NCBI GenBank assembly: GCA_965204725.1
Contig: OZ242005.1
Coordinates: 4,736,001 to 4,800,000 of the forward strand
Reading direction: 5' to 3'
DNA length: 64,000 nt
DNA from: Candidatus Latescibacterota bacterium
GTDB taxonomy: Bacteria; Latescibacterota; UBA2968; UBA8231
Under the pieces are notes generated by a model that was not told the DNA's origin, made no database searches, and saw only the letters and a program-made list of their open reading frames with translations. The translations under genes and the position numbers were made by a program. Positions 6,950-22,188 of this stretch are shown here, one piece after another. Numbering within the stretch: the first letter of the stretch is position 1; each line of letters starts with the position of its first letter.

Positions 6950-7061
6950 GCCTCGCGTCGTCAGGCAAGACGAGCCAAAAGCAACATGAGTGTTAGAACG
7001 CTTCTAACGGCTCTTCCACGCAGCAACGCCGTTGTCATCCACATTAAGGAATAGTTCCCAA

Positions 7062-7916
7062 ATGACGTACGACCCCGATTCGGTGCGACAGTACTTTGAT
7101 GAGTTTTCCGAGCGCGAATGGGATCGGCTCTCTAATTCTATACAAGGAAGAATCAAGTACAGAATTCATCGCCAATTCCTCGAGAAATTCGTCCGCCCTG
7201 AGATGCATGTACTGGATGCTGGATGTGGTCCGGGTCGGTTCGCGATCGATCTAATTAAACTGGGTGCTAATGTTACTCTTGTTGACTTGTCCAATGTACA
7301 ACTTGAGCTTGCTCGAAGCCACTTGAGCAAAGCCAACTTGCTACAGAGGGCCACAGCGATTCAGCAAGGAGATATCACACGCCTTGATACCATCGACGAT
7401 TCGACATTTGATGTTACCGTTTGCTACGGTTCCACAATATCATATACCTGCCAAGAATTTCCTCGGGCACTTGAGGAACTGATGCGCGTAACGCGGCCCG
7501 ACGGACACATAATTGCGAGCGTAACTTCACTGTTTGGCACTCTGCGGCTTGTGGGGCCTCTTGACGCTCGCGACTTCATCCGCTCGGCTGACTGTCACCT
7601 AGACTGGAAAGCCGTATTGTCGGGAGAACAAATCGCGTACACCAAGTCGGGATCTCCTGAGTTTCACCAACCGATGGTCCTATTCACGTCCGCCGGTTTT
7701 CTCTCAGTACTTGAGGACGCTGGCCTGACGGTTATAGAAATGGCCAGTTCTAATCCAATCGTACCATCTTTTACTTCTGTTTCATCAATTGCAGAAAGCG
7801 CGAGCGCCTCAGCAGAACTTGAGCGTTTGGAACTTGCCACCTGCAAGGCCCCAGGGCTGTTGGATGCTGGTGAACATTTGATCGCTGTTGCCAAGAAGAC
7901 CAGCGTTGGAAGCTAG
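7062..7916 (+). CDS. Class I SAM-dependent methyltransferase
   Basis: VLDAGCGPG motif I; ATG 7062 follows AAGGA; visibly lower GC than the flanks. Confidence 0.85.
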   Translation: MTYDPDSVRQYFDEFSEREWDRLSNSIQGRIKYRIHRQFLEKFVRPEMHVLDAGCGPGRFAIDLIKLGANVTLVDLSNVQLELARSHLSKANLLQRATAIQQGDITRLDTIDDSTFDVTVCYGSTISYTCQEFPRALEELMRVTRPDGHIIASVTSLFGTLRLVGPLDARDFIRSADCHLDWKAVLSGEQIAYTKSGSPEFHQPMVLFTSAGFLSVLEDAGLTVIEMASSNPIVPSFTSVSSIAESASASAELERLELATCKAPGLLDAGEHLIAVAKKTSVGS

Positions 7917-8056: not shown

Positions 8057-8617
8057 TCAACGCGCCCCAAAAATCTCGTTCAGATCAACGGCGAAGCCTT
8101 CAAGCGTCGGCGAGGTCAGCGTCTGTCCTTCGCCGTACAGGCCCACCACCTCGAAAGCACCCCCATCCAGCCGCAGCACCGTCACTGTCCGGGCATCTGG
8201 ATCGACCAGCCAGTATTCCCGCACCCCGTGTTTCGCATACAGGGCGCGTTTGAGCGTCCGGTCTCGCCCAGCCGTGGAAGGCGAGAGGATTTCTACGACC
8301 AAGTCCGGTGCGCCGAGGACATTCGTGCCGCCGAGCAACAGGTGCGCTCGCTCGTGGGAGACGAACAGTAGGTCTGGCTGAACTACGTCTGTATTCGACA
8401 ATACTACGTCGCAGGGGGCGAAAAAGACCTCGCCTAGCCCCCTCTCCGTCACGAATTGAGCGAGTCTCCATCCCAATTGGGTGCCAATTCGCTGATGTCC
8501 TACGTTGGGCGCGGGGGCCATGATCAATTCTCCGTCCAATAACTCGTAGCGTTGGTCATCCGGGGTGTGCTGATAGTCCTCATAGGTGAACTTGACAGCC
8601 GGCGTGGGACTGAGCAT
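8057..8617 (-). CDS. Uma2 family (PD-(D/E)XK-like) endonuclease
   Basis: RYELLDGEL, VQPDL, GAPDLVVEILSPST, KRALYAKHGVREYWLVDP. Confidence 0.92.
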   Translation of the reverse strand: MLSPTPAVKFTYEDYQHTPDDQRYELLDGELIMAPAPNVGHQRIGTQLGWRLAQFVTERGLGEVFFAPCDVVLSNTDVVQPDLLFVSHERAHLLLGGTNVLGAPDLVVEILSPSTAGRDRTLKRALYAKHGVREYWLVDPDARTVTVLRLDGGAFEVVGLYGEGQTLTSPTLEGFAVDLNEIFGAR

Positions 8618-10059: not shown

Positions 10060-10380
10060 ATGTATTCGATTGGCTTGGCCATGCGGCTGCGCCCCAATGC
10101 GTACGCCGAGTACAAACAGGCTCACGACGACCTGTGGCCCGAAATCGCCGAGAGCATGACCGACAACGAGGTCAGCATGGCCATCTACCGCTTGGGCGAA
10201 CATCTCGTCATCCACGCGGTCGCCCCCACGGAGGCAGACTGGCTCAAGAGCCGCCAAGTTCCCATCCTAGAAAAATGGTACGATTACATGGCTCAGTTGC
10301 TGGAGACCGACGACGAGGGGCAGATCCTCTTTGAGGAGTTACCCGAAGCCTTTGCCTTCGGGATGTTCGAGCAAGCGTAA
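10060..10380 (+). CDS. rhaM: L-rhamnose mutarotase family protein
   Basis: MRLRP..EYKQAHDDLWPEI...KWYDYMA pattern; AAGGAG RBS. Confidence 0.75.
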   Translation: MYSIGLAMRLRPNAYAEYKQAHDDLWPEIAESMTDNEVSMAIYRLGEHLVIHAVAPTEADWLKSRQVPILEKWYDYMAQLLETDDEGQILFEELPEAFAFGMFEQA

Positions 10381-10383
10381 ACG

Positions 10384-11187
10384 CTAGTTGGCTTCCACCG
10401 GGTTTTGCAGTCGGCCGATCGAGTCTATTTCTACGATTACCTCATCGCCGGCTGCGAGCCACACGGGCGGTTTGCGCGCAAAACCCACGCCCTGCGGGGT
10501 GCCGGTGAGGATGACCGTGCCCGGCAGCAGGGTCGTATCTTGGCTGAGGAATTCGATCAGTTCGGCAACCGTGAAGATCATGTCGCCGGTGGTGTGGTCC
10601 TGCATGGTCGCACCATTGAGGATCGTGCGGATTCCGAGGGCCTGCGGGTCGGAGATTTCGTCGGCGGTGACCAGCACCGGCCCCAAAGGGCAGAAGGTGT
10701 CAAAGCCCTTGCCGCGGATCCATTGGCCGCCGCCGGCATGGAGCTGCCACTTGCGGGCCGAGACATCGTTGGCGCACGTATATCCGAGCACGTAGCTGAG
10801 GGCGTCGGCCCGCGCCACGTTGCGAGCGGCTTGGCCGATCACCACCGCGAGTTCGCACTCGTAGTCAACTTCCGGGCCGCGGCGGCAGCAGGCGGGCAGC
10901 CGGATTGCGTCGCCCGGGCCGCAGACCGCGCTCGTGGGCTTGGCAAAGACGACCGGCTGCTCGGGCGGCGCGAGGCCGGATTCGGCCGCGTGTTCTCGGT
11001 AGTTTAGCCCAATGCAGAAAATGTTGGTCGGGGCGAGCGGGGCGAGCCGCCTTTTGACGGCGACCTGTTCGCCAGTCGGCACGAGTTCCGCAAAGAGATC
11101 GCCAGCGAGCACAGAGGCTTGGCCCTCCTCGGCTTCAAGGCCCCAACGGACGGCGTCGTCAACGTCTATAAAGCGAATGATGCGCAT
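10384..11187 (-). CDS. Fumarylacetoacetate hydrolase family protein
   Basis: IFCIGLNYREH, VDYECELAVVIG, NDVSAR, GKGFDTFCPLGP, ILTGTPQGVG; start follows AAGGAG. Confidence 0.92.
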   Translation of the reverse strand: MRIIRFIDVDDAVRWGLEAEEGQASVLAGDLFAELVPTGEQVAVKRRLAPLAPTNIFCIGLNYREHAAESGLAPPEQPVVFAKPTSAVCGPGDAIRLPACCRRGPEVDYECELAVVIGQAARNVARADALSYVLGYTCANDVSARKWQLHAGGGQWIRGKGFDTFCPLGPVLVTADEISDPQALGIRTILNGATMQDHTTGDMIFTVAELIEFLSQDTTLLPGTVILTGTPQGVGFARKPPVWLAAGDEVIVEIDSIGRLQNPVEAN

Positions 11188-11220
11188 GTCTTTCTCCTTT
11201 GTTTTCCAGCACTTGGACAA

Positions 11221-11284
11221 ACTTTAAGGCAAGGCTGATAGCCCGTCAAATAGCCTTGACGCTTGGAATGGGGCCGCCTATTTT
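11221..11284. promoter_or_regulatory. Back-to-back divergent sigma-70-like promoters (FAH gene and BMC operon)
   Basis: Plus strand TTGACG(11256)-N17-TATTTT; minus strand TTGACG(11249)-N17-TAAAGT. Confidence 0.5.
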
Positions 11285-11322
11285 CCCCATGCTAATAGCA
11301 AACCCAACCCGAGGAAAAGAGC

Positions 11323-12735
11323 GTGCCCCCAAACGTCAGCGAAGAACACGTCCGCAAAATAGTCGAAGAAGTGGTGCAGCGAGTCGTCAGCGGCCAGGAC
11401 GGCCGCGAGGGTGGGGACACCGGCGTCTTCGCGACGATCGACTCGGCAGTCCAAGGCGCGACCCGCGCCCAGCAGCAGTTGGTTGCCTTGTCGCTAGAGC
11501 AACGCAAAAAGATCGTCGAGGCCCTCCGGCATACAGCCCACGCCCACGCCGAGGAGTTTTCGCGACGCGCCCTAGCCGAGACGGGAATGGGGCGGCTCGA
11601 AGACAAAATCGTCAAGCACCAAGTCGCGGCCGACACAACGCCCGGCGTCGAGGACCTAGAGGCGGCTTCGTGGACCGGCGACCACGGGCTGACCGTAGTC
11701 GAAATGGCACCCTACGGGGTCATCGGCGCCGTCACCCCATCGACGCATCCCGTGCCGACGATGGTCAACAATGCCATTTGCATTGTCGCCGCGGGCAATT
11801 CGGTCGTCTTCAACGTCCATCCGGCGGGCAAAGAGGTCTCCATGTTTGCGGTGGGCTTGATCAATCAAGCCATCGTCGCGGCTGGAGGCCCGGCCAACTT
11901 GGTGACCGCGGTCCAAACGCCCACCCTTGAGACAGCCAACGAATTGTTCAACCACCCGGGGGTCCGCCTCCTGCTGGTCACCGGCGGCCCGGGGGTGGCC
12001 AAGGCCGCGCTGGGCAGCCCAAAAAAGGCCATCATCGCCGGCCCGGGCAACCCGCCCGTGGTCGTCGATGAAACGGCCGATTTGGCCAAGGCCGCACGCG
12101 ACATCATCGACGGGGGAGGCTTCGACAACAACATTCTCTGCATCGGCGAGAAGCAGGTCTTTGCCGTCGCTGCAATTGCCGACGAGCTCAAGCGGCTGAT
12201 GGTCCAGTACAATGCCTACGAGCTCGATGCGCGGCAGGTCGAGGCCCTCGCGCAGGCGGCCTTTGTCCAAGGGCCAGACGGGCAGCTCGCCGCCAACCGC
12301 GAGTTGGTGGGGCGCGACGCGGCCGTGCTGGCCGACCGCATCGGCCTCCGGCTCGATTCGTCGCTGCGCCTACTCATTGGCGAGACCGACGCCAATCACG
12401 TTTTCGTGCGCGAGGAGCAGATGATGCCCTTTCTGCCGATCGTGCGGGTCCCCAACATCGATCAAGCCATCCGCGAGGCCGTCATCTCCGAGCACGGCTA
12501 CGGGCACACGGCCGTGATCCATTCGCGCAACATCGAAAACATGCACAACATGGCCCGCGCCGTAGATACCACTATTTTCGTCAAGAATGGGCCTTCCTAC
12601 GCCGGGGTTGGCTTGGGCGGCGAGGGCTTTGGGACGTACTCCATCGCCGGGCCGACGGGCGAGGGCCTGACTTCGCCGCGCACCTTTACCCGCCAGCGCC
12701 GCTGCGCCCTCGTAGATTACTTCCGCATTACCTGA
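11323..12735 (+). CDS. CoA-acylating aldehyde dehydrogenase (EutE/PduP-like) with N-terminal encapsulation peptide
   Basis: PYGVIGAVTPSTHP, VTGGPGV, AGPGNPP, FDNNILCIGEK, TGEGLTS; amphipathic N-terminal helix SEEHVRKIVEEVVQRV. Confidence 0.93.
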   Translation: MPPNVSEEHVRKIVEEVVQRVVSGQDGREGGDTGVFATIDSAVQGATRAQQQLVALSLEQRKKIVEALRHTAHAHAEEFSRRALAETGMGRLEDKIVKHQVAADTTPGVEDLEAASWTGDHGLTVVEMAPYGVIGAVTPSTHPVPTMVNNAICIVAAGNSVVFNVHPAGKEVSMFAVGLINQAIVAAGGPANLVTAVQTPTLETANELFNHPGVRLLLVTGGPGVAKAALGSPKKAIIAGPGNPPVVVDETADLAKAARDIIDGGGFDNNILCIGEKQVFAVAAIADELKRLMVQYNAYELDARQVEALAQAAFVQGPDGQLAANRELVGRDAAVLADRIGLRLDSSLRLLIGETDANHVFVREEQMMPFLPIVRVPNIDQAIREAVISEHGYGHTAVIHSRNIENMHNMARAVDTTIFVKNGPSYAGVGLGGEGFGTYSIAGPTGEGLTSPRTFTRQRRCALVDYFRIT

Positions 12736-13049
12736 TGCTCTTGGGCCAAGTCAAAGGGCACTTGGTTTCCACGGCCAAGGTCCCCAGCCTCAACGGCAAG
12801 AAGCTCTTAGTCGTCGAAATTGCGTCGGTGCGCGAGCACGGTCTGGTGCTGACGGGGCGGGATATGGTCTGCATCGACGCGGTACAAGCGGGCGAGGGCG
12901 AGTTGGTAATTTTAGTGCAGGGCAGCTCGTCGCGGGTCGCCCCGGACTTGGGTGATGTGCCAACCGACGCGGTCATCGTCGGCATCGTCGATTCGCTACA
13001 GGCCATGGGCCAGGACTTCGACTGTCGGGACCTGAGTCGCGAAGGGTAA
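12735..13049 (+). CDS. BMC pentamer (EutN/CcmL family, BMC-P)
   Basis: GQVKGHLVSTAK...DAVQAGEGELVILVQGSSSR...DAVIVGIVD. Confidence 0.95.
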   Translation: MLLGQVKGHLVSTAKVPSLNGKKLLVVEIASVREHGLVLTGRDMVCIDAVQAGEGELVILVQGSSSRVAPDLGDVPTDAVIVGIVDSLQAMGQDFDCRDLSREG

Positions 13050-13052
13050 GCG

Positions 13053-13733
13053 ATGGACATTGCACCAGCGGCCGGATTGGACCGCAAGCAGATTGAGGCG
13101 TTGGTGCGCCGGGCGGTGTACGATCGCCTGCCCGACGCTCAGCTAGCGCAGGCACCTCCAGCCCCGAGGCTGGTCGTCAACATGTCCGCCCGCCACGTCC
13201 ACCTCAATCAAAAAGCCCTAAACGCGCTCTTCGGCGCGGGTGCCGAGTTGACCGTCCAGAAGGCCCTGTACCAAGAGGGTGCTTTTGCCGCCGAGCAGAC
13301 GGTATCGGTTTTCGGCCCGCGCAAGCAGGTGATTCCCAACGTCCGCATCCTCGGCCCCTTGCGCGATTACAACCAAGTGGAACTGGCTTTTACGGATGCT
13401 CGCTTTTTGGGCATTGACGCGCCAGTGCGGCTCAGCGGCCACATCGACGGGACGCCCGGCTGCTACTTGGTCGGGCCGGCCGGGGGGCTGACGCTCGAAC
13501 GCGGCGTGATTCGGGCCGCCCGCCACGTCCATCTAAACCCGGCCGAGGCCGCGTACTACGAGGTCGGCCCGGGGGACTTGCTGCGGCTGGTCGTAGAAAG
13601 CGAGCAGGGCGGAGTGCTCGAAGGGTTGATCTGCCGAGTCAGCGACCACGAGCACTTGGAGGTCCACATCGACACGGACGAGGGCAATGCGATTGATTTG
13701 ATGCACGCCCGCAAGGTATATTTGGAGCGTTGA
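13053..13733 (+). CDS. pduL: PduL-type phosphotransacylase with N-terminal encapsulation peptide
   Basis: SARHVHL, VRILGPLR, ARHVHL, HIDTDEGNA; N-terminal helix DRKQIEALVRRAVYDRL. Confidence 0.93.
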   Translation: MDIAPAAGLDRKQIEALVRRAVYDRLPDAQLAQAPPAPRLVVNMSARHVHLNQKALNALFGAGAELTVQKALYQEGAFAAEQTVSVFGPRKQVIPNVRILGPLRDYNQVELAFTDARFLGIDAPVRLSGHIDGTPGCYLVGPAGGLTLERGVIRAARHVHLNPAEAAYYEVGPGDLLRLVVESEQGGVLEGLICRVSDHEHLEVHIDTDEGNAIDLMHARKVYLER

Positions 13734-13770
13734 ACGCAAAAATCCGCACAATTACTTCAGGAGGTAAGGG

Positions 13771-14334
13771 ATGTCGGATGCAATAGGCATGGTAGAAACC
13801 GTGGGGCTGGTCGGGGTCGTCGAGGCCGGCGACGCCATGGCCAAGGCCGCCAGCGTCCAGCTTTTGGGCTGGGATAGAGTCGGCTCTGGTTTGGTGACAG
13901 TGTTTTGCGCAGGCGATGTGGCCGCCGTCAAGTCGGCCGTAGATGCCGGTTCAACCGCTGCGGCCAAGGTCGGGGAGGTGCATTCAGTACACGTGATTCC
14001 CCGTCCCCACAGCGAGTTGACGGCCGTCGTGCCCGAGCGCGGCGACAGCAGCGACGGCGATGGCCCTATCCGCGCCTTGGGCCTCATTGAGACGAAGGGC
14101 ACCATCGGCGTGGTCGAAGCAGCCGACGCCATGAGCAAGGCCGCCGATGTGGAGATCGTCAAGCTCCAAGACATCGGCGGCGGGTACATCACCGTCATCG
14201 TCAGCGGCGACGTCGGCTCGGTGCAGGCGTCGGTCAGCGCCGGTGCTGAATCGGCCGAGCGCGTGGGCGAGCTCGTATCGCAGCACGTGATTCCTCGCCC
14301 CCACGACGATCTCGTCGCGCTATACTTGGAATAG
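13771..14334 (+). CDS. BMC shell protein with two tandem BMC domains
   Basis: Two repeats of A(I/L)G(M/L)(V/I)ET...DAMxKAA...GDV...HVIPRPH. Confidence 0.93.
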
Positions 14335-14345
14335 AGGAGAGAACA

Positions 14346-14609
14346 ATGAAAGCATTGGGTATGGTCGAGACCCGCGGTTTGGTTTGCGTCGTCGAAGCCC
14401 TCGACGCCATGTTGAAGACCGCCGACGTCAGCTATGCGGGCCAGAAGCGCGTGGGCAGCGGCCTAATCACCGTACTGGTCGAAGGCGACGTGGCGGCCGT
14501 CAAAGCGGCCGTGGATGCGGGAGCGCAAGCCGCCCAGCGCATCGGCGAGTTGCGCAGCGTCCACGTGATTCCCCGCCCGACTGAAGGACTGACCGATCAC
14601 CTCGGTTAG
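14346..14609 (+). CDS. BMC-H hexameric shell protein
   Basis: ALGMVETRG...DAMLKTA...[10 protein letters not shown]...HVIPRP. Confidence 0.95.
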
Positions 14610-14625
14610 CTAGGGGATCGAGGCT

Positions 14626-15042
14626 TTGCACATCGACGTTCCGGTCGTCACCGGCGACTTACTCGGGCGCGAACACAAGGGCGAGCGGGTACTCAGCGTA
14701 TCCCCCAGCGCCATCCTGACGCCAACGGCTTGGGATTACATCCGCCAGCACCGGTTGCAGGTGCAGCGCGGCGAGCCGGTCGCGGACGCGGGTCGGTGCG
14801 AGCAGCCCGACCGCCCCTGCGGCTGCGAGCACGAGGAGTTTGGTTCGGGGTTCGTCGAGCCGGAACGTTGCGGTGATTGCGCGGTCCACCAGCGCAAGAA
14901 GGCGGGCGATCCCGAGGCGAGTTGCGCTGGCTGCAATCGCTACAAGACGCTTTTGCAACAAATCGACAAGGGCCAAGCCACCGCCCCAGAAGCCTTAGTC
15001 GAGCAGATCACCGAGCTAGTCATTCACCGGCTGGCAGACTAA
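14626..15042 (+). CDS. Cys-rich BMC accessory protein with C-terminal encapsulation-peptide-like helix
   Basis: Seven Cys (C-x6-CxC, CxxC, CxxC); N-terminal AILTPTAWDYIR module; C-terminal PEALVEQITELVIHRL. Confidence 0.7.
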   Translation: MHIDVPVVTGDLLGREHKGERVLSVSPSAILTPTAWDYIRQHRLQVQRGEPVADAGRCEQPDRPCGCEHEEFGSGFVEPERCGDCAVHQRKKAGDPEASCAGCNRYKTLLQQIDKGQATAPEALVEQITELVIHRLAD

Positions 15043-15045
15043 GCT

Positions 15046-15630
15046 ATGGCGGACGCCCCGGCAGTCGGCATGATCGAGGTGGAGGGCGTGGCCGCGGCCA
15101 TTATGGGCGCAGATGCGGCCTGCAAGGCGGCGGACGTGAAGCTCGCCGGTTGGGCGTCAATCGGCGGTTACACCACGGCCTTTTTCACCGGATCAATTAG
15201 CGATGTGGCCGCCGCGCTGCACAGCGGTGAAGAAGCCGCCCGAGCAATAATAGAACACGTGGTAGCCGTGCCCCTCCACCAACCCGCCGCTCCCTGCCAC
15301 CATTTTGTCGATTTTCCGGCCGAAGCCCAAGGCGACTTCCCGGCTGGGGCCTTGGGGTTGGTCGAAACGCGCGGCTACGGGGTCCACATCCACATCAACG
15401 ATCAGATGGTCAAGACAGCGGCCGTCGAGGTAATCAACGTGCTGACGGTCCACGACCGCGTGGTGTGTTCGCTGATATTGGGAGACATCGGGGCTGTCAC
15501 CGAAGCCATCGCCGTCGCGCAAAAGCTGCTCGCCGGCTGCGAGCACTTGCTGGGCACGGCCCTGATCCCGCAGCCGCGGCCAGAGGTCTTAGCCGTTTAT
15601 GCCGCGCCGATGGGAGCGGGCGGTGGCTAG
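15046..15630 (+). CDS. BMC shell protein with two divergent tandem BMC domains
   Basis: AVGMIEVEG...DAACKAA and ALGLVETRG...DQMVKTA...GDIGAV...LIPQP. Confidence 0.88.
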   Translation: MADAPAVGMIEVEGVAAAIMGADAACKAADVKLAGWASIGGYTTAFFTGSISDVAAALHSGEEAARAIIEHVVAVPLHQPAAPCHHFVDFPAEAQGDFPAGALGLVETRGYGVHIHINDQMVKTAAVEVINVLTVHDRVVCSLILGDIGAVTEAIAVAQKLLAGCEHLLGTALIPQPRPEVLAVYAAPMGAGGG

Positions 15631-16771
15631 CGGGGCAATCGGCGTGCTGGAGACGCGCGGCATGGCGTCGCTCATGGCTTCCACCGACGCCATGCTCAAG
15701 GCCGCGGACGTCCAACTCTGCGGTCGGCACGGCATTGGTTCGGGTTGGCTCACCGCCGTAATCGCCGGTCGAGTGGCGGATGTAGAGGCGGCCCTTGGCG
15801 TCGGCGAGGTCGAGGCAAACCGCACGGGCGAGCTGATCGGTGCCCAAGTGGTGCCGCGGCCGGAGGCAGGCGTCATGGACGCCATGCCCCACGCAACGGG
15901 CCTCGGCGCCGAACAGGTCCAGCCGCGGGCGATTGGCTTATTGGAAACGCAGGGCCTGACGCCGCTAGTGGCTGGTGCCGACGCCATGCTCAAGGCCGCC
16001 CAAGTGGAGCTGGGAGGTTGGGCCTTCATCGGCGGTGCTCTGTGCCACGCGCCGGTCTTTGGCGATGTGGCGGCCGTGCAAGCGGCACTAGCAGCCGGCC
16101 GCCAAGCAGCCGAGCGGATTGGCTCGGTGTACGCGACCCTCGTTTTACCCCAGCCCAGCGCGGGGCTAGGTCCTCTGGTGCCGACCGCGCCAGTGACCGA
16201 GCCGTGCTCCACCGGTGCCTTGGGCCTCATAGAGACCATTGGGTACGCCGTGGTCGTGGGCAGTGCCGACGCCATGCTCAAAGCCGCGGATGTCCAAATC
16301 GAGTGCTTGAGCATCGGCAGCGGTGGGCGGATTGCCGCGCTGGCCACCGGCCAGCTCGATGACGTGCAGGCCGCCGTGCGCGCCGGTGCCGAGGCCGCCA
16401 CAGCCTTGGGGCAGCTCGATGCCTCGGCCGTAGTCTCTGGGCCTGATCCCATGCTAGTCGCCCGCTTTGCCGCCGCGGCCGAAGGGCTTGAGCCGGGAGC
16501 GCGGCAGGCCATGGGGCTGATTGAGACGCGCAGCACCGTGGCCTTGGTGCGGGCTGTAGATCGGATGCTCAAGGCCGCGGCCATCGAATACGAGGGGGCC
16601 TATAAAGTGGGATACTACTTGACGGCCGCCGTCGTCCGCGGCGATGTCGGTGCCGTGCAAGTCGCCATAGAGGCCGGCCGGCAGGAGGCCGTCGCCCACG
16701 GAGAATTGGTCTCGGCCTACGCCATTCCGCAGCTCTACAGCGGTCTCGAAGGCCGCCTGCCGCACGTTTAG
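15623..16771 (+). CDS. BMC shell protein with four tandem BMC domains
   Basis: Four repeats beginning AIGVLETRG, AIGLLETQG, ALGLIETIG and AMGLIETRS, each with D(A/R)MLKAA. GTG start 15623 follows GGAG and overlaps the upstream TAG. Confidence 0.9.
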   Translation: MASGAIGVLETRGMASLMASTDAMLKAADVQLCGRHGIGSGWLTAVIAGRVADVEAALGVGEVEANRTGELIGAQVVPRPEAGVMDAMPHATGLGAEQVQPRAIGLLETQGLTPLVAGADAMLKAAQVELGGWAFIGGALCHAPVFGDVAAVQAALAAGRQAAERIGSVYATLVLPQPSAGLGPLVPTAPVTEPCSTGALGLIETIGYAVVVGSADAMLKAADVQIECLSIGSGGRIAALATGQLDDVQAAVRAGAEAATALGQLDASAVVSGPDPMLVARFAAAAEGLEPGARQAMGLIETRSTVALVRAVDRMLKAAAIEYEGAYKVGYYLTAAVVRGDVGAVQVAIEAGRQEAVAHGELVSAYAIPQLYSGLEGRLPHV

Positions 16772-16784
16772 CGAGGACGCGAAA

Positions 16785-17948
16785 ATGATTCGGATTGACG
16801 ACGCAGTGATTACCGCTCAGACCTTGGAGACCCGCCTAGCGGGCGAACGGCAGGTCGAGATCGGCCCCGGGGCTAAGCTGACGCCCTCGGCGCAGGATTT
16901 TTTGCGCGTCCAAGGCGTTGAGCTCGTCCGCCGCGAAGCCGGCCACCAAGCCCCGCCAACGCCAGCACCAGCGGTTCCTCGCGCGGCCGGCCGCAAGGCA
17001 TTTGCTGGCATCTTCTGTCCCAATGTCGTCCTTTTCGACAGCCAGAACGCGATCAACCACGCCGAGATGGAGCGCTACATCAACTGGTTGATTGAGGTTG
17101 GGATCCACGGGCTGTATCCCAACGGCAGCACGGGCGAATTCGCACGCCTGTCGCGCGAGGAACGCCAAGACGTGGTGCGCTTGGTCTGCGAGGTCAACAA
17201 GGGGCGTGTCCCGGTGCTGGCCGGCGCCAGCGAGGCCAACGTGCGCGACGTGCTCGAGATGGCCGAATACTACGCCGCGCTCGGCGTGGATGCCATTGCG
17301 GTGATGCCCCCCTATTACTACGAAATTTCCACCGAAAGCCTCTTCGAGTACTTCGCCGAAATTGCCGAAGAATCGCCGCTGGACATCCTGCTGTACAACA
17401 TCCCGCAATTTACCCAAGAGCTGTCGCTAAACTTGATGGAGCGGCTCTTGCCCTACGAGCGGATCTTCGGCACCAAGGACTCCAGCCGCGACCTGCCGCG
17501 GCTGCTCAACACCATGCACCGCCTGCGCCAACAACGATCCGACTACGTGGTAATGACCGGTTGCGAGGAGATCGTATTTCCCTCGGTGATGATGGGGGCC
17601 AGCGGGGGCACCATCGCCACTTCGGGCATCGTCCCGGAAGTCATCGTCGAGCTTTATGAAAAGGCTGTAAGCGGCGACATTGAGCGGGCCCGCGAGCTGC
17701 AATACCGCATCCTCGACCTAATTAACCTCATGCTCTTAGGCGTCAACTTCCCAGAGGGCTTCAAGACCGGGGTGGCGGCCCGCGGCTTCGACGTAGGCCC
17801 CGCACGCACATCGAGCAGCGCGGCCGAGCAGGAGTACCTGCTCAAACTGGAGGCCCAAATCAACTGTGTCCTCGCGGATATGGGCTATCCCGTCCACGGC
17901 CCCCGCGCCTGCCCGACCACCAACCTGCCGTCGATCGTCGGGCGCTAG
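16785..17948 (+). CDS. DapA/NAL-family class I aldolase/lyase with N- and C-terminal extensions
   Basis: NGSTGEF, LYNIPQ, GTKDSS (Schiff-base Lys); extra N-terminal module AKLTPSAQDFLR followed by a Pro-rich linker. Confidence 0.88.
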   Translation: MIRIDDAVITAQTLETRLAGERQVEIGPGAKLTPSAQDFLRVQGVELVRREAGHQAPPTPAPAVPRAAGRKAFAGIFCPNVVLFDSQNAINHAEMERYINWLIEVGIHGLYPNGSTGEFARLSREERQDVVRLVCEVNKGRVPVLAGASEANVRDVLEMAEYYAALGVDAIAVMPPYYYEISTESLFEYFAEIAEESPLDILLYNIPQFTQELSLNLMERLLPYERIFGTKDSSRDLPRLLNTMHRLRQQRSDYVVMTGCEEIVFPSVMMGASGGTIATSGIVPEVIVELYEKAVSGDIERARELQYRILDLINLMLLGVNFPEGFKTGVAARGFDVGPARTSSSAAEQEYLLKLEAQINCVLADMGYPVHGPRACPTTNLPSIVGR

Positions 17949-19022
17949 ATGGCCCTCACCGGCGCGTGTGTGTTGGTCGTCGGGGCCGGTATCATCGGCC
18001 GCTCAACAGCCTATTTCCTCGCGCAACAAAACGCGCAGGTCACCCTGCTCGACGAGGGAATCGCCGCTGGCTCGCCCACGAGCCGGGCCTCTTTGGGCGT
18101 CCTTACCCACTGCAACGGCGGCGACAATCCCTACGCCCAGCTTTTGCGCGACGGCCATGCCCTACACGCCCGGCTGGCCCGCGACCTCAACGAAGACCTA
18201 GGAGCAGACGTGGGCTGGCGTCCCCTCGGCGGCATCGAGCTTTTTGCCGACCCATCCCAGCTAGAAGCGGTGTGGCACTTCAACCGCGCCCGCGGCTGTC
18301 GGGTCGAGCGGCTCGACGCCCGGGCCTTGTGCGCTGCGGAGCCGGCGTTGGATGGCGACGAGGGCCTGTATTTTGCCGACGATCACCGGGTGGACCCCCT
18401 CAAACTGGGCGCAGTGCTTTGGGCGGCTGCCGCCCAGCGGGATGCGTCCGCCGCTTGGGGCGAGCGCGTCTGGCGCGTGGCCCAAGCGGGCGAAACCGTT
18501 GAGGTCGCGACCACTCGCGGAACGCATCGCGCCGATTTTGCGGTCTTGGCCGCTGGGGCGTGGACCAGCGGCTTGGCCGCCCAACTCGGAGCCCGAGTCG
18601 CGCTGCGCCCAGTGCGGGGCCAACAAGCGCGTTTTACTGGCGCCCCGCTGCGCCACCTCGTGCGGGTCAACGGACGCCACCTCATTCCAGACGGCGGCGA
18701 AACGGTCGTGGGCTCGACGGTGGAGGAGGTCGGCTTTCGGTTGGAAACGACCCGCGCGGCCGCAGGGCAGTTCGCCGCAGAGGTACGCTCTGCGCTGGGG
18801 CGGCCCTTGCCCTTGTCGCGCCAGCAAGCCGGCCTGCGGCCCAAGCCCCGGGGCGGGCGGCCGCTCATCGGCCCGCTGACGGATGCGCCGCGGGTTTTTG
18901 TCGCGGCTGGGCACTACAAAAACGGCGTCTTGCTAGGCCCGATTACGGGCCAAATCGTCGCTCGCTGGATCGCCGCGGGAACCCCGGGGCGCGACATGCG
19001 CCGCTTCGCACCCGAGCGTTGA
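17949..19022 (+). CDS. FAD-dependent D-amino-acid/glycine oxidase family protein (ThiO-like)
   Basis: VVGAGIIG, RPVRGQ, AGLRP, GHYKNGVLLGP. Confidence 0.88.
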   Translation: MALTGACVLVVGAGIIGRSTAYFLAQQNAQVTLLDEGIAAGSPTSRASLGVLTHCNGGDNPYAQLLRDGHALHARLARDLNEDLGADVGWRPLGGIELFADPSQLEAVWHFNRARGCRVERLDARALCAAEPALDGDEGLYFADDHRVDPLKLGAVLWAAAAQRDASAAWGERVWRVAQAGETVEVATTRGTHRADFAVLAAGAWTSGLAAQLGARVALRPVRGQQARFTGAPLRHLVRVNGRHLIPDGGETVVGSTVEEVGFRLETTRAAAGQFAAEVRSALGRPLPLSRQQAGLRPKPRGGRPLIGPLTDAPRVFVAAGHYKNGVLLGPITGQIVARWIAAGTPGRDMRRFAPER

Positions 19023-19055
19023 ATTTATCACCACCTAACACCATTGAGGTTAAAC

Positions 19056-19997
19056 ATGCCATTGCAAAAAGAAGACCTACTCGCCGCGCTAAACTCGGTC
19101 ACCTCCATCCCGGTGGTCCCTTTTCGCGGCGGGCGCATCGACTACGACGCCCATGCCAAGAACATCAACTACCTAATGGAGAACAACCACTTAGACGGCG
19201 GCCGGCCCCGGGTGATTGGCATCGCCGGCACCAGCTTGGTCCACCACATTAGCGCGGCCGAGCAAGTGCGGCTATTGGGATTTACCGGGGAACTGATGGG
19301 CGGGCGCGGGGTGCTCATGGCCGGGATTGCCCCCAATCCGGTTGGGGATGCCGAGCGGTTGATCGAGCGGGAGGCCGCGCTCGAATATCCCCCGGATGTC
19401 TATCTCGTCATGCCGCTTACTGGCGTGGCCAATCCAGCGGGCATTTTTGCGTACTACGCGGATTTTGCCGAGCGGTTGGGACGTTCGTGCGGGGCCAAGT
19501 TGCTCTACTACCTGCGCAACCCAGCCGAGTGCGAGATCGCCGTGCGGCTGATGAACGAGTCCGAGCACTTCGTAGGGCTGAAGATCGGCACCACGGTCGA
19601 GGACGTCGAGCCGATTGTCGCGGGGGTGGAAGAGGGAGCAGCGCTGGTGATATGGGGCGTGGGGGACCGCTCAACCGGGCCGGCCGAGCGCGGCACCAAA
19701 GGCCACACATCGGGAATTAACGTAGCTTTCGCCCGCGCCTCCGACGAGATCAACAACGCCCAGCGCCGCGGCGATTTTGCGACCTCCCAGCAGATCGAAA
19801 ACCAACTCGCGGCCCTAGAGGAGATTCGCTTCCGCAACGGCCGCATGTACAACTATTCAGCCGTAGTTGAGGCCATGCACTTGGGCGGATTCAGCGATGT
19901 AGATGGCGGCGAGGGCGGCCCGTTCAACCCGCGAGTGCCGGCGGAAGTAGCCGAGGAAGTGGCCGCGGCCATAGCCGACATTATACCCTACCACTAA
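19056..19997 (+). CDS. Second, divergent DapA-family protein (aldolase/dehydratase/deaminase)
   Basis: SIPVVPF..GRIDYDAHAKNINYL, AGTS, LYY, FVGLKIG; start follows GAGGT. Confidence 0.72.
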   Translation: MPLQKEDLLAALNSVTSIPVVPFRGGRIDYDAHAKNINYLMENNHLDGGRPRVIGIAGTSLVHHISAAEQVRLLGFTGELMGGRGVLMAGIAPNPVGDAERLIEREAALEYPPDVYLVMPLTGVANPAGIFAYYADFAERLGRSCGAKLLYYLRNPAECEIAVRLMNESEHFVGLKIGTTVEDVEPIVAGVEEGAALVIWGVGDRSTGPAERGTKGHTSGINVAFARASDEINNAQRRGDFATSQQIENQLAALEEIRFRNGRMYNYSAVVEAMHLGGFSDVDGGEGGPFNPRVPAEVAEEVAAAIADIIPYH

Positions 19998-20293
19998 ACC
20001 CGGCGCAGCCGCTCTAGATAGGCCGCCCATTCAACCGGGAGCCGGTGCTGCTTTTGGCTATTGCAGTGCTTGCAGCAAGGGACCACGTTGGACTTGGTGG
20101 TTTGGCCGCCGCGGATGAGCGGCACCACGTGGTCCATGGTCAGCTCCTCGGGCGCAAACGACCGCTCGCAGTAGTGGCACTGGCCGGCGGCCCGTTCGCG
20201 CTTCCACCACTGAGAGCGGCGCAGCATCTTGGCCTTGGTTTTCTCTCGGGCGACGTGCTCGGCGTCGGCTGGGACGAAGTAGCTATTTTCCAT
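19994..20293 (-). CDS. Small HNH endonuclease
   Basis: CHYC...LTMDHVVPLIRGG...NVVPCCKHCNSQK. Confidence 0.92.
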   Translation of the reverse strand: MENSYFVPADAEHVAREKTKAKMLRRSQWWKRERAAGQCHYCERSFAPEELTMDHVVPLIRGGQTTKSNVVPCCKHCNSQKQHRLPVEWAAYLERLRRV

Positions 20294-20321
20294 GGGAGAG
20301 CAAGATGCTTAGCCAGCCGCT
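20228..20321. repeat. Left copy of the direct repeat bounding the TIR cassette
   Basis: 20228-20293 matches 22467-22532 with two mismatches; 20308-20321 matches 22533-22546; the left copy has a 14-bp insertion. Confidence 0.9.
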
Positions 20322-20734
20322 TACTCTGCTTGGTATCCCAAGTCCCACACGCGCAGAAGATCGCGACACCCCTGTTCAAAAGTTTGCGTAAAATCGATTA
20401 ACTGAATGGAAAACAGCGTCCAAGAAAGTTGCCCATAATTACAGGGTTGGTGCAAAAGGGGAATCATTTTGTTTTCAAAGTGATTCAGATAAAAAGAAAA
20501 CATCAGCTCTTTCTTTACCCAAGCGGATCCCACTGCATTTGGCGACAAGACAAGCACAAACCAATCGCAGCGGAGAATCGCTTCACCAATTTCATCATGC
20601 CATTGCTGTCCCCCAAGGACATTGGATCGACTGTACCAGACGCGAAGCCCATGCCGCCGCATCATGTCGACCAACTCTTCTACAAACGGCCGATCTCGGT
20701 CAGAATGCGAAAGAAAAATTTCCGTTGGCAACAT
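20321..20734 (-). CDS. TIR domain protein (TIR_2-like)
   Basis: IFLSHSDRDRPFVEEL...VLVLSPNAVGSAWVKKEL, with the catalytic-position Glu. Confidence 0.9.
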   Translation of the reverse strand: MLPTEIFLSHSDRDRPFVEELVDMMRRHGLRVWYSRSNVLGGQQWHDEIGEAILRCDWFVLVLSPNAVGSAWVKKELMFSFYLNHFENKMIPLLHQPCNYGQLSWTLFSIQLIDFTQTFEQGCRDLLRVWDLGYQAE

Positions 20735-20737
20735 AAT

Positions 20738-21184
20738 TCAAGAGATTGATGCAGATGTAGGCGGGGAGCTTGCTATATCGTTTTCCAGAATTGCCTGTGC
20801 GATTTGTTTAATCCCTTCTTCTTCCTCGTCGTATTCACCCATATCGATTATATGTAAGAGCCGAAGAATCCATGGAATATCTTCTTTGGGTATCTCTTCT
20901 GAATCGCCAACAAGGACGGGGATCAGGCGTTTGCGATAGTTTTGTTCGCCAAGAGCATACTCAATTTCCCGGCGTACCCAACTTGAACGCAGAGCGTCGG
21001 CGGTCAGGAGGACCACCATGGCTTCTGACTCTTTCAATGCTTGCGCTACCTTCTCCGTCAAAGTATCCTCAGACAGGATTTCACGGGTGGCATCCCACAC
21101 ATCAAGGCCAGCTTTTTCTAAGCCTACCGCGACCTTCTTGACAAAAGGCTCATCCTTATACGCATGGCTAATAAAGACTTTCAT
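20738..21184 (-). CDS. TIR domain protein (TIR_2-like)
   Basis: KVFISHAYKD...GLDVWD...SSWVRREIEYAL...LIPVL. Confidence 0.9.
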   Translation of the reverse strand: MKVFISHAYKDEPFVKKVAVGLEKAGLDVWDATREILSEDTLTEKVAQALKESEAMVVLLTADALRSSWVRREIEYALGEQNYRKRLIPVLVGDSEEIPKEDIPWILRLLHIIDMGEYDEEEEGIKQIAQAILENDIASSPPTSASIS

Positions 21185-21207
21185 AATCCAAACTATCCTT
21201 TCGTCCG

Positions 21208-21705
21208 CTAAAGATCCAGTAAAGTAAAAATACTAGCCAATAAGAAATACAACAAACCAAAGCATACCGGCACCCATTTCTCTACACCCGTAAGCGGAGA
21301 GTATAGCTTTCTATCTTTCCCTTTGCCGAGGGCTATCCATTCAGTATCGTAAGGAGCAACAGGTAGCATTTGCTCAAGTGCGAGAATGACCTTGTACTTA
21401 CCGCTGTTTAGCTGCCGATACGAACACACGACGCGCCACCACACGTAACAGAGGAGCATCAAGGCAACAAAAGGTACAAAGATGAGCAACGCTGGTTTCA
21501 GTATGTCCTCTTTGAGCAGCACGATAAAGGCGATAGTCAGCGTCGTATGCACACCGACGAAAAACGAGTTTGCTAGCATCCTTCGCGCACTGATCCTATC
21601 AGCCATTTCGACGTATAGCTTGTACTGGTCGAAAAGGTGATTCTCAAATTCGGCACCATAAGTATCTTTACTTTGGCGTAGCAAGTTTAGGCTGTTTTTG
21701 CTCAC
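21208..21705 (-). CDS. Small ~3-TM membrane protein, putative oligomeric pore effector
   Basis: FDQYKLYVEMADRISARR..ANSFF, two TM helices, SYRQLNSGKY..I..LE, and a C-terminal TM. From memory it resembles small TIR-associated octameric membrane proteins. Confidence 0.65.
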   Translation of the reverse strand: MSKNSLNLLRQSKDTYGAEFENHLFDQYKLYVEMADRISARRMLANSFFVGVHTTLTIAFIVLLKEDILKPALLIFVPFVALMLLCYVWWRVVCSYRQLNSGKYKVILALEQMLPVAPYDTEWIALGKGKDRKLYSPLTGVEKWVPVCFGLLYFLLASIFTLLDL

Positions 21706-21771
21706 TGTTTTTCTTCCTCGTTGATTTATGATGTATCCAATGGGTTATCGTAAAACATTTCTACTTTTTAG

Positions 21772-22188
21772 CTACAAAGACCATCTGCGAACAGCAGCTA
21801 CGATACTACTTGTTTGCCAACCAACCATTTCCTTGGCAACGTTTTGCACTTCAATCGGCATACGTTCTTGACCCCAAGGGGCAACTCCGATAATTGGCTT
21901 TCCATAGGATATGGCGATGTCGATTTCTTCCTGAATCCACCTTCTGTGATTGACATACATGCCAGAAACCACAAGAAAGCAGTTAATAGGGGCGATTTGT
22001 CGGTCAAGTGCTTGACGTAGTTCCCCATCTGTCTTTGTTTCAAGCGGATCGTGCTCTGGAACTGAGTAATTGCGCCAATAGAAGTAAGGTGCTTCGGAGA
22101 GAAACATCTCAAGGCGGTAGTACTCGGAGTTTTCGACTCTATGCCATACATGGCTTAAAAAAAGATCATACGTTTTAAGTTTTGGCAT
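21772..22188 (-). CDS. Thoeris ThsB-like TIR protein (DUF1863/MTH538)
   Basis: YDLFLSH.W...NYSVPEHDP...SGMYVNHRRWIQEEIDIA...KPIIGV.PWGQER. Confidence 0.88.
   Translation of the reverse strand: MPKLKTYDLFLSHVWHRVENSEYYRLEMFLSEAPYFYWRNYSVPEHDPLETKTDGELRQALDRQIAPINCFLVVSGMYVNHRRWIQEEIDIAISYGKPIIGVAPWGQERMPIEVQNVAKEMVGWQTSSIVAAVRRWSL

Follow-up and report, generated by a model that had tools for sequence, protein, structure and literature searches.

What supplies the aldehyde to a metabolosome whose operon pairs a CoA-acylating aldehyde dehydrogenase (AldDH) with two enzymes of the DapA family? The question is raised by a gene cluster in the window, that is, the whole 64,000-nt stretch of a Candidatus Latescibacterota genome analyzed here (assembly of 5.43 Mb, 94% complete), whose open reading frames (ORFs) were scanned with Pfam and NCBIfam models. 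Coordinates without a prefix are positions in the window, and those beginning with G000:C1 lie elsewhere in the same genome. As the preliminary description of this DNA had listed them, genes for AldDH, PduL, the bacterial microcompartment (BMC) vertex protein BMC-P, other shell proteins, two DapA-family proteins (DapA1 and DapA2) and an FAD oxidase are all present on the + strand, with only the FAH-family gene that it named on the – strand (Table 1). BMC-H and BMC-P shell genes (PF00936, PF03319) stand together in one locus with a CoA-acylating AldDH that carries an encapsulation peptide and with a phosphotransacylase, the gene content of a metabolosome. All nine BMC-domain matches of a whole-assembly scan fall in this locus, and a satellite at G000:C1:2589366–2590161 holds another three BMC-P genes. 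Neighboring operon genes touch or share a few bases. The arrangement is not due to chance; related loci retain the gene order down to 65% DapA1 identity. The gene cluster is confirmed as real and conserved, and the organelle it encodes has a protein shell. Among the sequencing runs listed with near-identical DNA, none was of RNA. The operon ORFs include no glycyl-radical enzyme, B12 enzyme, class II aldolase, alcohol dehydrogenase or acyl kinase, as the preliminary description had stated, and the statement holds for the operon only (see below). An NAD+-recycling alcohol dehydrogenase is absent from the locus, AldDH being the sole dehydrogenase family among the ORFs at 10060–19997. Neither a recycling enzyme of the lactate/malate-dehydrogenase type, nor a DeoR regulator, nor an acetate kinase is encoded in the operon, and the only acetate kinase gene of the genome is remote from it (G000:C1:1011991–1013139).

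Conserved gene order ties DapA1 to the shell. A scan of one genome per species returned 77 loci with relatives of DapA1 (65–93% identity), nearly all in metagenome-assembled genomes labelled Latescibacterota, with some labelled Gemmatimonadetes/-ota. The window proteins were counted in these loci by tblastn, the denominator for each gene being the loci long enough to show it (Table 1). Two shell genes, the BMC-T gene T2 and the four-domain gene Q4, accompany DapA1 in every examinable locus (71/71 each), and Q4 ends no more than 400 nt from DapA1 in all of them. Only T2, Q4 and DapA1 are present in 18 loci, referred to here as the split-locus clade, and the trio is intact even where the other organelle genes lie about 2 Mb off. 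Three split-locus genomes carry AldDH elsewhere; in one of them PduL, BMC-H and three BMC-P genes accompany it at a second locus. DapA2 was found in none of these three genomes, although shell and DapA1 are kept, and their best oxidase match is only 32–35% identical. Therefore, the shell genes and DapA1 form the constant unit, to which the oxidase and DapA2 are additions. The preliminary description had treated both DapA genes and the oxidase as linked to the shell; this stands for DapA1, with T2 and Q4 upstream and a targeting-like domain of its own (see below), and falls for DapA2 and the oxidase, which are not core. In a survey of 168 species genomes of the phylum, DapA1-type genes (E ≤ 1e-90) were detected in 85 and BMC-P genes in 146.

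The TIM barrel of DapA1, of the dihydrodipicolinate synthase (DHDPS)/N-acetylneuraminate lyase (NAL) family, spans residues 73–359 and is preceded by a 72-aa N-terminal extension; the 'extensions' noted earlier are borne out at this end of the protein and nowhere else. DapA1 scores below every NCBIfam cut-off (TIGR00674, 158.3 bits vs 206.15). Its best PDB match is the 2-keto-3-deoxygluconate (KDG) aldolase of Picrophilus torridus (4uxd, 130 bits), followed by YagE, and the motifs PxGSTG, MPPYY, YNIPQFT and KDSS are common to DapA1 and 4uxd. The Schiff-base Lys, the catalytic Tyr and the S/T-T of GSTGE are invariant in a 21-row alignment, as in a pyruvate-dependent class I aldolase. Among orthologues, Lys231 is kept in 60/61, Tyr204 in 51/61 and GSTGE in 59–61/61, and GCEE is also conserved. 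One narrower annotation, the true dapA product (DHDPS of the lysine pathway), to which a DapF-like neighbor in one clade had pointed, was rejected. In DHDPS, Arg138 binds aspartate semialdehyde. DapA1 has Phe in YNIPQFT where DHDPS has Arg, its TIGR00674 score falls short, and the nine other family members of this genome include a higher-scoring match at C1:2564744.

The N-terminal extension comprises a highly conserved block of about 50 residues (1–50), here called the TPSA domain, and a variable Pro/Ala-rich linker (51–72). The same domain opens the scaffold-like protein encoded upstream of T2, where it is followed by a conserved Cys-rich module (GRCxxPDRxCGC..EEFGSGFVEP..CxxC..CxGC in the alignment) and a C-terminal amphipathic helix, EALVEQITELVIHRL, that resembles an encapsulation peptide. 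In an AlphaFold2 model of the scaffold (mean predicted local distance difference test score, pLDDT, 80.7; helix at 121–137), residues 1–50 form a strand-helix-strand-helix-strand unit with pLDDT 90–97. The topology recurs in the weaker model of DapA1 (mean pLDDT 62.3; N-domain about 80), in which residues 51–79 are a low-confidence linker. Residues T10, L14, T33, P34 and D38 are invariant. A TPSA profile searched against all six-frame fragments of the genome recovered only DapA1 and the scaffold (E = 9e-25 and 2e-23; next match, E = 0.096). The domain alone matches no Pfam family, and a Foldseek search of the scaffold model against the PDB gave 0 matches at E ≤ 0.001. Because DapA1 is the only TPSA protein in the split-locus clade (3/3 genomes), the domain does not depend on the scaffold. 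A complex prediction for the N-domains of DapA1 and the scaffold scored 0.00 against a mark of 0.32, which is evidence neither way.

Among 1.84 billion representative proteins searched, TPSA was found in 919 at E ≤ 0.001. When the best 150 of the 919 were sorted by simple motifs, 10 were DapA fusions, 18 scaffolds and 47 proteins of about 230 aa with an ACxANR motif; 75 were unassigned, many of them, by eye, fragments or variants of the sorted classes. The ACxANR proteins typically open with a classical encapsulation peptide, and 2/10 tested gave sub-threshold RpiB (PF02502) matches. In many library proteins of this size, TPSA follows a classical N-terminal encapsulation peptide and precedes a degenerate RpiB-like domain, and a 250-aa protein, P0072, that looks by eye like a PduO/EutT-type adenosyltransferase contains TPSA twice. 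The stretch of SPU RPI that corresponds to TPSA is described as an unstructured linker in the accessible part of PMC11585597. We conclude that DapA1 is a conserved, shell-linked cargo enzyme bearing a targeting-like domain, and we infer that it is encapsulated.

Relatives of DapA1 that lack the N-domain carry a different targeting element. Six genomes from two other families of the phylum encode DapA proteins with 47–52% identity to DapA1, each followed directly by a BMC-T gene and each ending in a linker and a classical C-terminal encapsulation peptide (tail type ...EIQAIVAEVVRQMR). A BMC-type AldDH gene was present elsewhere in 5/5 of these sister genomes searched. A metagenome scan seeded with the sister proteins returned 80 loci (53–98% identity), in all of which the DapA protein ends in an amphipathic tail resembling an encapsulation peptide (80/80, by inspection); in 38 of the 65 examinable loci the next 400 nt downstream include the start of a BMC-domain gene. 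In a maximum-likelihood tree of 40 rows (15 N-domain DapA1, 16 C-terminal-peptide DapA and 9 paralogues of this genome), obtained by a quick search, rooted at the midpoint, with long paralogue branches and without C-terminal-peptide rows outside 325–420 aa, the N-domain clade (SH-aLRT 100) is nested in the C-terminal-peptide family (SH-aLRT 99), apart from all nine paralogues. The simplest reading is a single family of organelle-targeted aldolases whose targeting device was exchanged in this lineage, the peptide giving way to TPSA.

The neighbors of the sister enzymes point to acid-sugar substrates. The operon of one sister family encodes a rhodanese, GlcD/E-like and GlcF-like proteins, an enolase-superfamily dehydratase, a short-chain dehydrogenase/reductase (SDR), DapA and BMC-T; that of another sister genus encodes GlcD-like and GlcF-like proteins, DapA, BMC-T and a medium-chain dehydrogenase/reductase (MDR). 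An MDR dehydrogenase and a dehydratase also lie within 5 kb in the split-locus clade. A dehydratase homologue was found in 15/80 metagenomic sister loci, where genes recur that resemble, by eye only, D-2-hydroxyacid dehydrogenases and major facilitator superfamily transporters of the anion:cation-symporter type. Homologues of the oxidase, DapA2, FAH and rhaM were found in none of these 80 loci, and in the six sister genomes the oxidase and DapA2 are not near the sister DapA gene, sugar-acid genes being there instead.

The shell genes include two BMC-T genes and Q4. Both halves of T1 end in IPRPH. The likely true start of Q4 is a GTG at 15623 that overlaps the T2 stop codon, giving a protein of 382 aa; 57/60 orthologous ORFs are at least 379 aa long, i.e. 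the single ORF is conserved, and each of the four domains has its own conserved signature in the alignment. Among 7,999 candidates scored, 727 homologues of Q4 were found at E ≤ 1e-20, and the best 120 listed are 285–404 aa long, mostly about 380. The main text of Sutter 2021 (PMC8217296) gives six shell protein classes, none of them four-domain, and its supplements may mention one; phrase searches of the searchable literature returned no paper on a four-BMC-domain protein. A Q4 trimer (12 domains) could give two covalently tethered pseudohexamers, stacked or adjacent, that staple tiles together.

The remaining cargo bears on which aldehyde is made. AldDH, which scores about 442 bits with PDB entries 5jfl and 4c3s, begins with the conserved helix SEEHVRKIVEEVVQRVV and PduL with the conserved stretch LDRKQIEALVRRAVYD, each followed by a variable linker in the alignments; a conserved amphipathic N-terminal helix plus variable linker is the classical encapsulation-peptide layout. 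The single class II aldolase gene of the genome (PF00596; G000:C1:1672527–1673252) stands alone amid housekeeping genes, and its product ends in a classical encapsulation peptide (...ALVERITEEVLRQLR / ...ESALVERITEEVLRQLR). The gene probably encodes satellite cargo for this organelle. In both the split-locus and the C-terminal-peptide clade, a tagged class II aldolase gene adjoins AldDH, and three metagenome loci (L122, L128 and L134) combine it with tagged DapA, BMC-T, PduL, BMC-H, BMC-P and AldDH. Class II aldolase homologues were detected in 145/168 genomes of the phylum survey and in 78 of the 85 that are positive for DapA1; the seven without one comprise two incomplete genomes (58–75%), three of one genus and two that are 91–93% complete. 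With a tagged class II aldolase encoded in the same genome, the organelle is best read as PVM-like and equipped with two aldolases rather than as an entirely new type. The atypical type without class II aldolase that had been proposed describes the operon, and no characterized type was matched in the searchable texts, but in view of the tagged copy elsewhere it overstates the case for the genome.

Class II aldolase is the signature enzyme of PVM organelles for L-fucose and L-rhamnose and yields lactaldehyde, according to the accessible parts of Axen 2014 (PMC4207490) and Sutter 2021 (PMC8217296). A second aldolase serving the same AldDH would most economically make the same aldehyde, and DapA1 would therefore be a 2-keto-3-deoxy-L-fuconate/-rhamnonate aldolase. 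Further fits for lactaldehyde are the best named NCBIfam relative of FAH (see below), the adjoining rhaM-like gene and published routes: pyruvate plus lactate or lactaldehyde are the end products when fucose and rhamnose are degraded without phosphorylation (PMC10444878, in the part available), and the fucose locus of C. jejuni contains a fucose-induced dapA homologue (PMC12566272, likewise).

We propose a model in which two deoxy-sugar routes converge on lactaldehyde in a metabolosome with DapA1 as the second aldolase; taken as a whole, it has in our estimate an even chance of being right. Four locus proteins carry targeting elements and would be cargo, namely AldDH and PduL (N-terminal peptides), the scaffold (TPSA and C-terminal peptide) and DapA1 (TPSA), and the class II aldolase encoded elsewhere, with its C-terminal encapsulation peptide, would be a fifth cargo. 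The two aldolases would supply one aldehyde to the lumen. As in PVM organelles, L-fuculose- or L-rhamnulose-1-phosphate would be the substrate that the class II enzyme cleaves, and DapA1, presumably running in the direction of cleavage, would split non-phosphorylated 2-keto-3-deoxy-L-fuconate or -L-rhamnonate into pyruvate and L-lactaldehyde. AldDH would convert lactaldehyde to lactyl-CoA and NADH, with NAD+ presumably regenerated; PduL would convert lactyl-CoA to lactyl-phosphate, freeing CoA, and a kinase from outside the locus would make ATP. The oxidase, DapA2, FAH and the rhaM-like protein would be cytosolic, lineage-specific additions. Of the two hypotheses in the preliminary description, the non-phosphorylative deoxy-sugar route to pyruvate and lactaldehyde is thus the better supported, without the weight that had been placed on rhaM.

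Several observations count against this assignment. The substrate of DapA1 is named by neither a family model nor a solved relative, and the libraries searched contain no model for cleavage of 2-keto-3-deoxy-L-fuconate or -L-rhamnonate. In the orthologue alignment, 10/61 DapA1 ORFs have Cys for Tyr204 and Arg for Gln208, either a real subclade or an effect of ORF calling or alignment. The dehydratases beside sister DapA genes match no characterized equivalog, and the PDB matches for these dehydratases and the SDR are uncharacterized or generic. The orthologous dehydratase gene in this genome lies 4.4 Mb off, among uninformative neighbors (ilvBN-like, AMP-binding, PfkB). The GlcD/GlcF-like genes in sister loci of one family (GlcF-like, 300.8 bits vs a cut-off of 333) would suit glycolate, and hence glycolaldehyde, at least as well as lactate. 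In a PDB search, FAH scored higher with HpcE (213.7 bits) than with L-2,4-diketo-3-deoxyrhamnonate hydrolase 8gsr (183.7 bits). When synteny of rhaM, FAH and the oxidase was checked, the oxidase was present in 57/76 loci, FAH in 34/63 and rhaM in only 17/63, all in the closest clade, so that the rhaM-like gene is a neighbor weakly linked to the locus. Finally, the deoxy-sugar model has no role for the co-transcribed ThiO-like oxidase and DapA2 and no assignment for an NAD+-recycling enzyme.

Part of this evidence would suit the same organelle with another 2-keto-3-deoxy acid. DapA1 would then be an encapsulated aldehyde generator that makes glycolaldehyde from a pentonate or glyceraldehyde from a hexonate (KDG or its galactonate counterpart, KDGal), with the class II aldolase feeding a different aldehyde. 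The best solved relative of DapA1 is a KDG aldolase, followed by YagE, the glycolate-oxidase-like GlcD/E and GlcF genes, the latter with the score given above, stand in sister DapA operons (L087/L090 and L085), and gluconate, galactonate and arabinonate dehydratase models give the best, though weak, scores for the flanking dehydratases. Against this, FAD_binding_4/CCG enzymes also oxidize D-lactate, convergence on a single aldehyde is more economical than one AldDH for two dissimilar ones, and FAH, the rhaM-like neighbor and the tagged class II aldolase indicate deoxy-hexoses. We regard this alternative as possible but unlikely.

The tight packing of DapA1, oxidase and DapA2 (DapA1 stop at 17948, oxidase start at 17949; 21 nt between oxidase and DapA2) could instead reflect an amino-acid route, the general form of the other hypothesis of the preliminary description, in which the oxidase would turn a 4-hydroxy-2-amino or N-substituted amino acid into a 4-hydroxy-2-oxo acid, and DapA1 and/or DapA2 would release pyruvate and an aldehyde for oxidation by the organelle. 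The three genes co-occur in 50–57 of 75–76 loci, and the nearest relatives of the oxidase are glycine oxidases. Yet in the three split-locus genomes shell and DapA1 persist without a detectable DapA2 and with only a distant oxidase match, neither gene is near DapA in the 80 metagenomic sister loci or in the loci of the six sister genomes, where sugar-acid genes are found, and neither protein has a recognizable targeting sequence. An amino-acid route is improbable on these grounds.

A still smaller chance is given to DapA1 being cargo but no source of aldehyde, that is, an inactive or structural core protein or a pyruvate-using enzyme, with the class II aldolase as sole signature enzyme. Class II aldolase (145/168) and BMC-P (146/168) are indeed nearly universal in the phylum and DapA1 is not (85/168), and the available text of PMC11585597 discusses the RpiB-like protein of SPU as cargo that has an encapsulation peptide yet is catalytically silent. 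The catalytic Lys, Tyr, GSTGE and GCEE of DapA1 are conserved all the same, two genomes of 91–93% completeness (G101 and G102) have DapA1 and no class II aldolase match at E ≤ 1e-40, and the dehydratase neighbors suggest a working pathway.

Hydroxyproline catabolism, the example given for that hypothesis in the preliminary description, in which a D-hydroxyproline oxidase and a DapA-family pyrroline-4-hydroxy-2-carboxylate deaminase would yield alpha-ketoglutarate semialdehyde for the organelle, is very improbable: the known pathway does run from a DAO-family (D-amino-acid oxidase) enzyme through a DapA-family enzyme to an aldehyde dehydrogenase, matching the triad of the locus, and near-identical DNA occurs in sequencing runs labelled sponge metagenome, sponges containing collagen, but the genome (94% complete) has 0 matches to PF05544, the proline-racemase-family 4-hydroxyproline 2-epimerase, the oxidase and DapA2 are dispensable in the sister clade, the ancestral context of DapA1 is sugar-acid genes, and we know of no precedent for a CoA-acylating AldDH and PduL acting on a keto-diacid semialdehyde.

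Comparison with known systems places the deoxy-sugar organelle proposed here next to the PVM type, with which it shares, as far as the accessible texts describe that type (PMC4207490, PMC8217296), AldDH, PduL, BMC-H/T/P, multiple BMC-P paralogues, a class II aldolase with an encapsulation peptide, encoded in the genome, and predicted lactaldehyde. Here, unlike there, the class II aldolase gene is a lone satellite, the locus has no recycling dehydrogenase, DeoR or acetate kinase, and the phylum is another. The organelle further differs from the PVM type in three features: a DapA-family cargo aldolase, a non-classical targeting domain that this enzyme has in common with the scaffold, and a four-domain shell protein. 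The 'SPU-like' locus of Latescibacteria single-cell genomes, as described in the available part of Axen 2014, comes from the same phylum and has AldDH and PduL, with a class II aldolase predicted to supply the aldehyde. A class II aldolase organelle found throughout the phylum, and already reported from such single-cell genomes (Axen 2014; Youssef 2015; both in the parts accessible), is the probable ancestor of the organelle described here. The SPU organelle with DERA (PMC11585597, in part) offers a parallel to DapA1, a class I aldolase whose N-terminus is extended by about 70 residues, regarded there as an encapsulation element; it differs in family (DeoC vs DHDPS/NAL) and substrate (sugar phosphate there, probably a non-phosphorylated sugar acid here). 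The non-encapsulated P. torridus KDG aldolase 4uxd and YagE have the same fold, with the Schiff-base Lys, the Tyr and the 4uxd motifs in common with DapA1; unlike 4uxd, to which identity is limited, DapA1 has a targeting domain and is fixed beside shell genes. Non-encapsulated L-2-keto-3-deoxyfuconate aldolases of the DHDPS/NAL family were reportedly described by Watanabe in 2020. The searchable literature returned no text linking microcompartments with DHDPS-family enzymes.

Many catalogued BMC types have AldDH and no known aldehyde source, and no signature enzyme is obvious in MUF2-3, MIC2-7 and others, according to the available text of Sutter 2021 (PMC8217296). A tagged DapA-family aldolase, encoded in about half of the species genomes of this widespread, uncultured phylum (85/168) and on at least 80 metagenome contigs, is a concrete candidate for such a source. 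If the model is true, one organelle combines phosphorylative and non-phosphorylative deoxy-sugar routes. We suggest tentatively, and at somewhat less than an even chance, that encapsulation-tagged DapA aldolases are an undescribed, widespread class of BMC signature enzyme for non-phosphorylated sugar acids, that TPSA is a second general BMC-targeting module (scaffold, RpiB-like and adenosyltransferase-like proteins) which replaced the C-terminal peptide, and that a four-domain shell protein was gained. The small folded targeting domain and the four-domain shell tile are parts that the locus supplies for shell engineering.

Table 1. Genes of the organelle locus and its immediate neighbors, with window coordinates, profile matches and presence in related loci (found/examinable).
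Gene or product	Position	Strand	Profile match	Related loci
rhaM-like, mutarotase family	10060–10380	+	PF05336 55.9 bits; TIGR02625 (RhaM equivalog) 41.5 bits, cut-off 99.6	17/63, upstream, all in closest clade
FAH-family hydrolase/isomerase, divergent from operon	10384–11220	-	PF01557 256.6 bits	34/63, upstream
CoA-acylating AldDH, N-terminal encapsulation peptide	11323–12735	+	NF011927 652.9 bits, cut-off 403	49/65
BMC-P, pentamer (vertex) protein	12735–13049	+	PF03319 86.2 bits	51/67
PduL phosphotransacylase, N-terminal encapsulation peptide	13053–13733	+	PF06130 218.2 bits; NF011652 221.2 bits, cut-off 209	51/67
BMC-T (T1), two canonical BMC domains in tandem	13771–14334	+	PF00936 174.6 bits, 2 stretches	52/69
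BMC-H, hexamer protein	14346–14609	+	PF00936 94.2 bits	52/70
Scaffold-like Cys-rich protein, 138 aa	14626–15042	+	no Pfam family	53/70
BMC-T (T2)	15046–15630	+	PF00936 105.2 bits, 2 stretches	71/71
Q4, shell protein with four tandem BMC domains	15599–16771	+	PF00936 242.6 bits, 4 stretches	71/71
DapA1, class I (Schiff-base) aldolase, DHDPS/NAL family	16785–17948	+	PF00701 195.2 bits, residues 73–359	
DAO-family FAD oxidase, nearest glycine oxidase ThiO	17949–19022	+	PF01266 180.6 bits	57/76, downstream
DapA2, divergent DHDPS-family protein	19044–19997	+	PF00701 39.9 bits	50/75
Small HNH-domain protein, 99 aa, convergent to DapA2	19994–20293	-	PF14279 57.2 bits	54/73, downstream

The oxidase scores 159.6 bits with TIGR02352 (cut-off 250.8) and 83–103 bits with glycine oxidases of the PDB, and both of its termini are flush with the fold, leaving no targeting extension. 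DapA2 has a Lys that aligns with the Schiff-base Lys in a profile alignment to DapA1, and lacks the GSTGE and YNxP motifs; its nearest PDB entry is 3e96 (43.3 bits), ESM Atlas gives 'DHDPS family' clusters only, and its conserved C-terminus is not set off by a linker. The best NCBIfam relative of FAH is 2,4-didehydro-3-deoxy-L-rhamnonate hydrolase (220.9 bits, far below the cut-off of 500). The small HNH protein keeps the same convergent position in related loci at 52–91% identity; such constancy is uncommon among genes of nuclease type.

Lon-N, an iron-dependent repressor and ZnuABC, encoded downstream and conserved, were set aside as housekeeping neighbors outside the system. Upstream of the locus, genes for a Uma2-family putative endonuclease (8057–8617, –) and a class I methyltransferase (7032–7916, +) are kept only in the closest relatives. 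About 7 kb upstream lies a gene for a DUF6785/DUF6784 protein (1868–4129, –); a homologous family member (L088:5114–7444) is encoded two genes upstream of a sister DapA in a distant family, a recurrence that could be coincidence or a transporter link. On the other side, a low-GC stretch at 20321–22188 (–; GC 0.485 vs about 0.63 either side) carries three TIR-domain genes (20321–20734, 20738–21184 and 21772–22188) and a gene for an 8xMP membrane protein (21208–21705), and looks like an anti-phage defence islet inserted between the organelle locus and its usual downstream neighbors.

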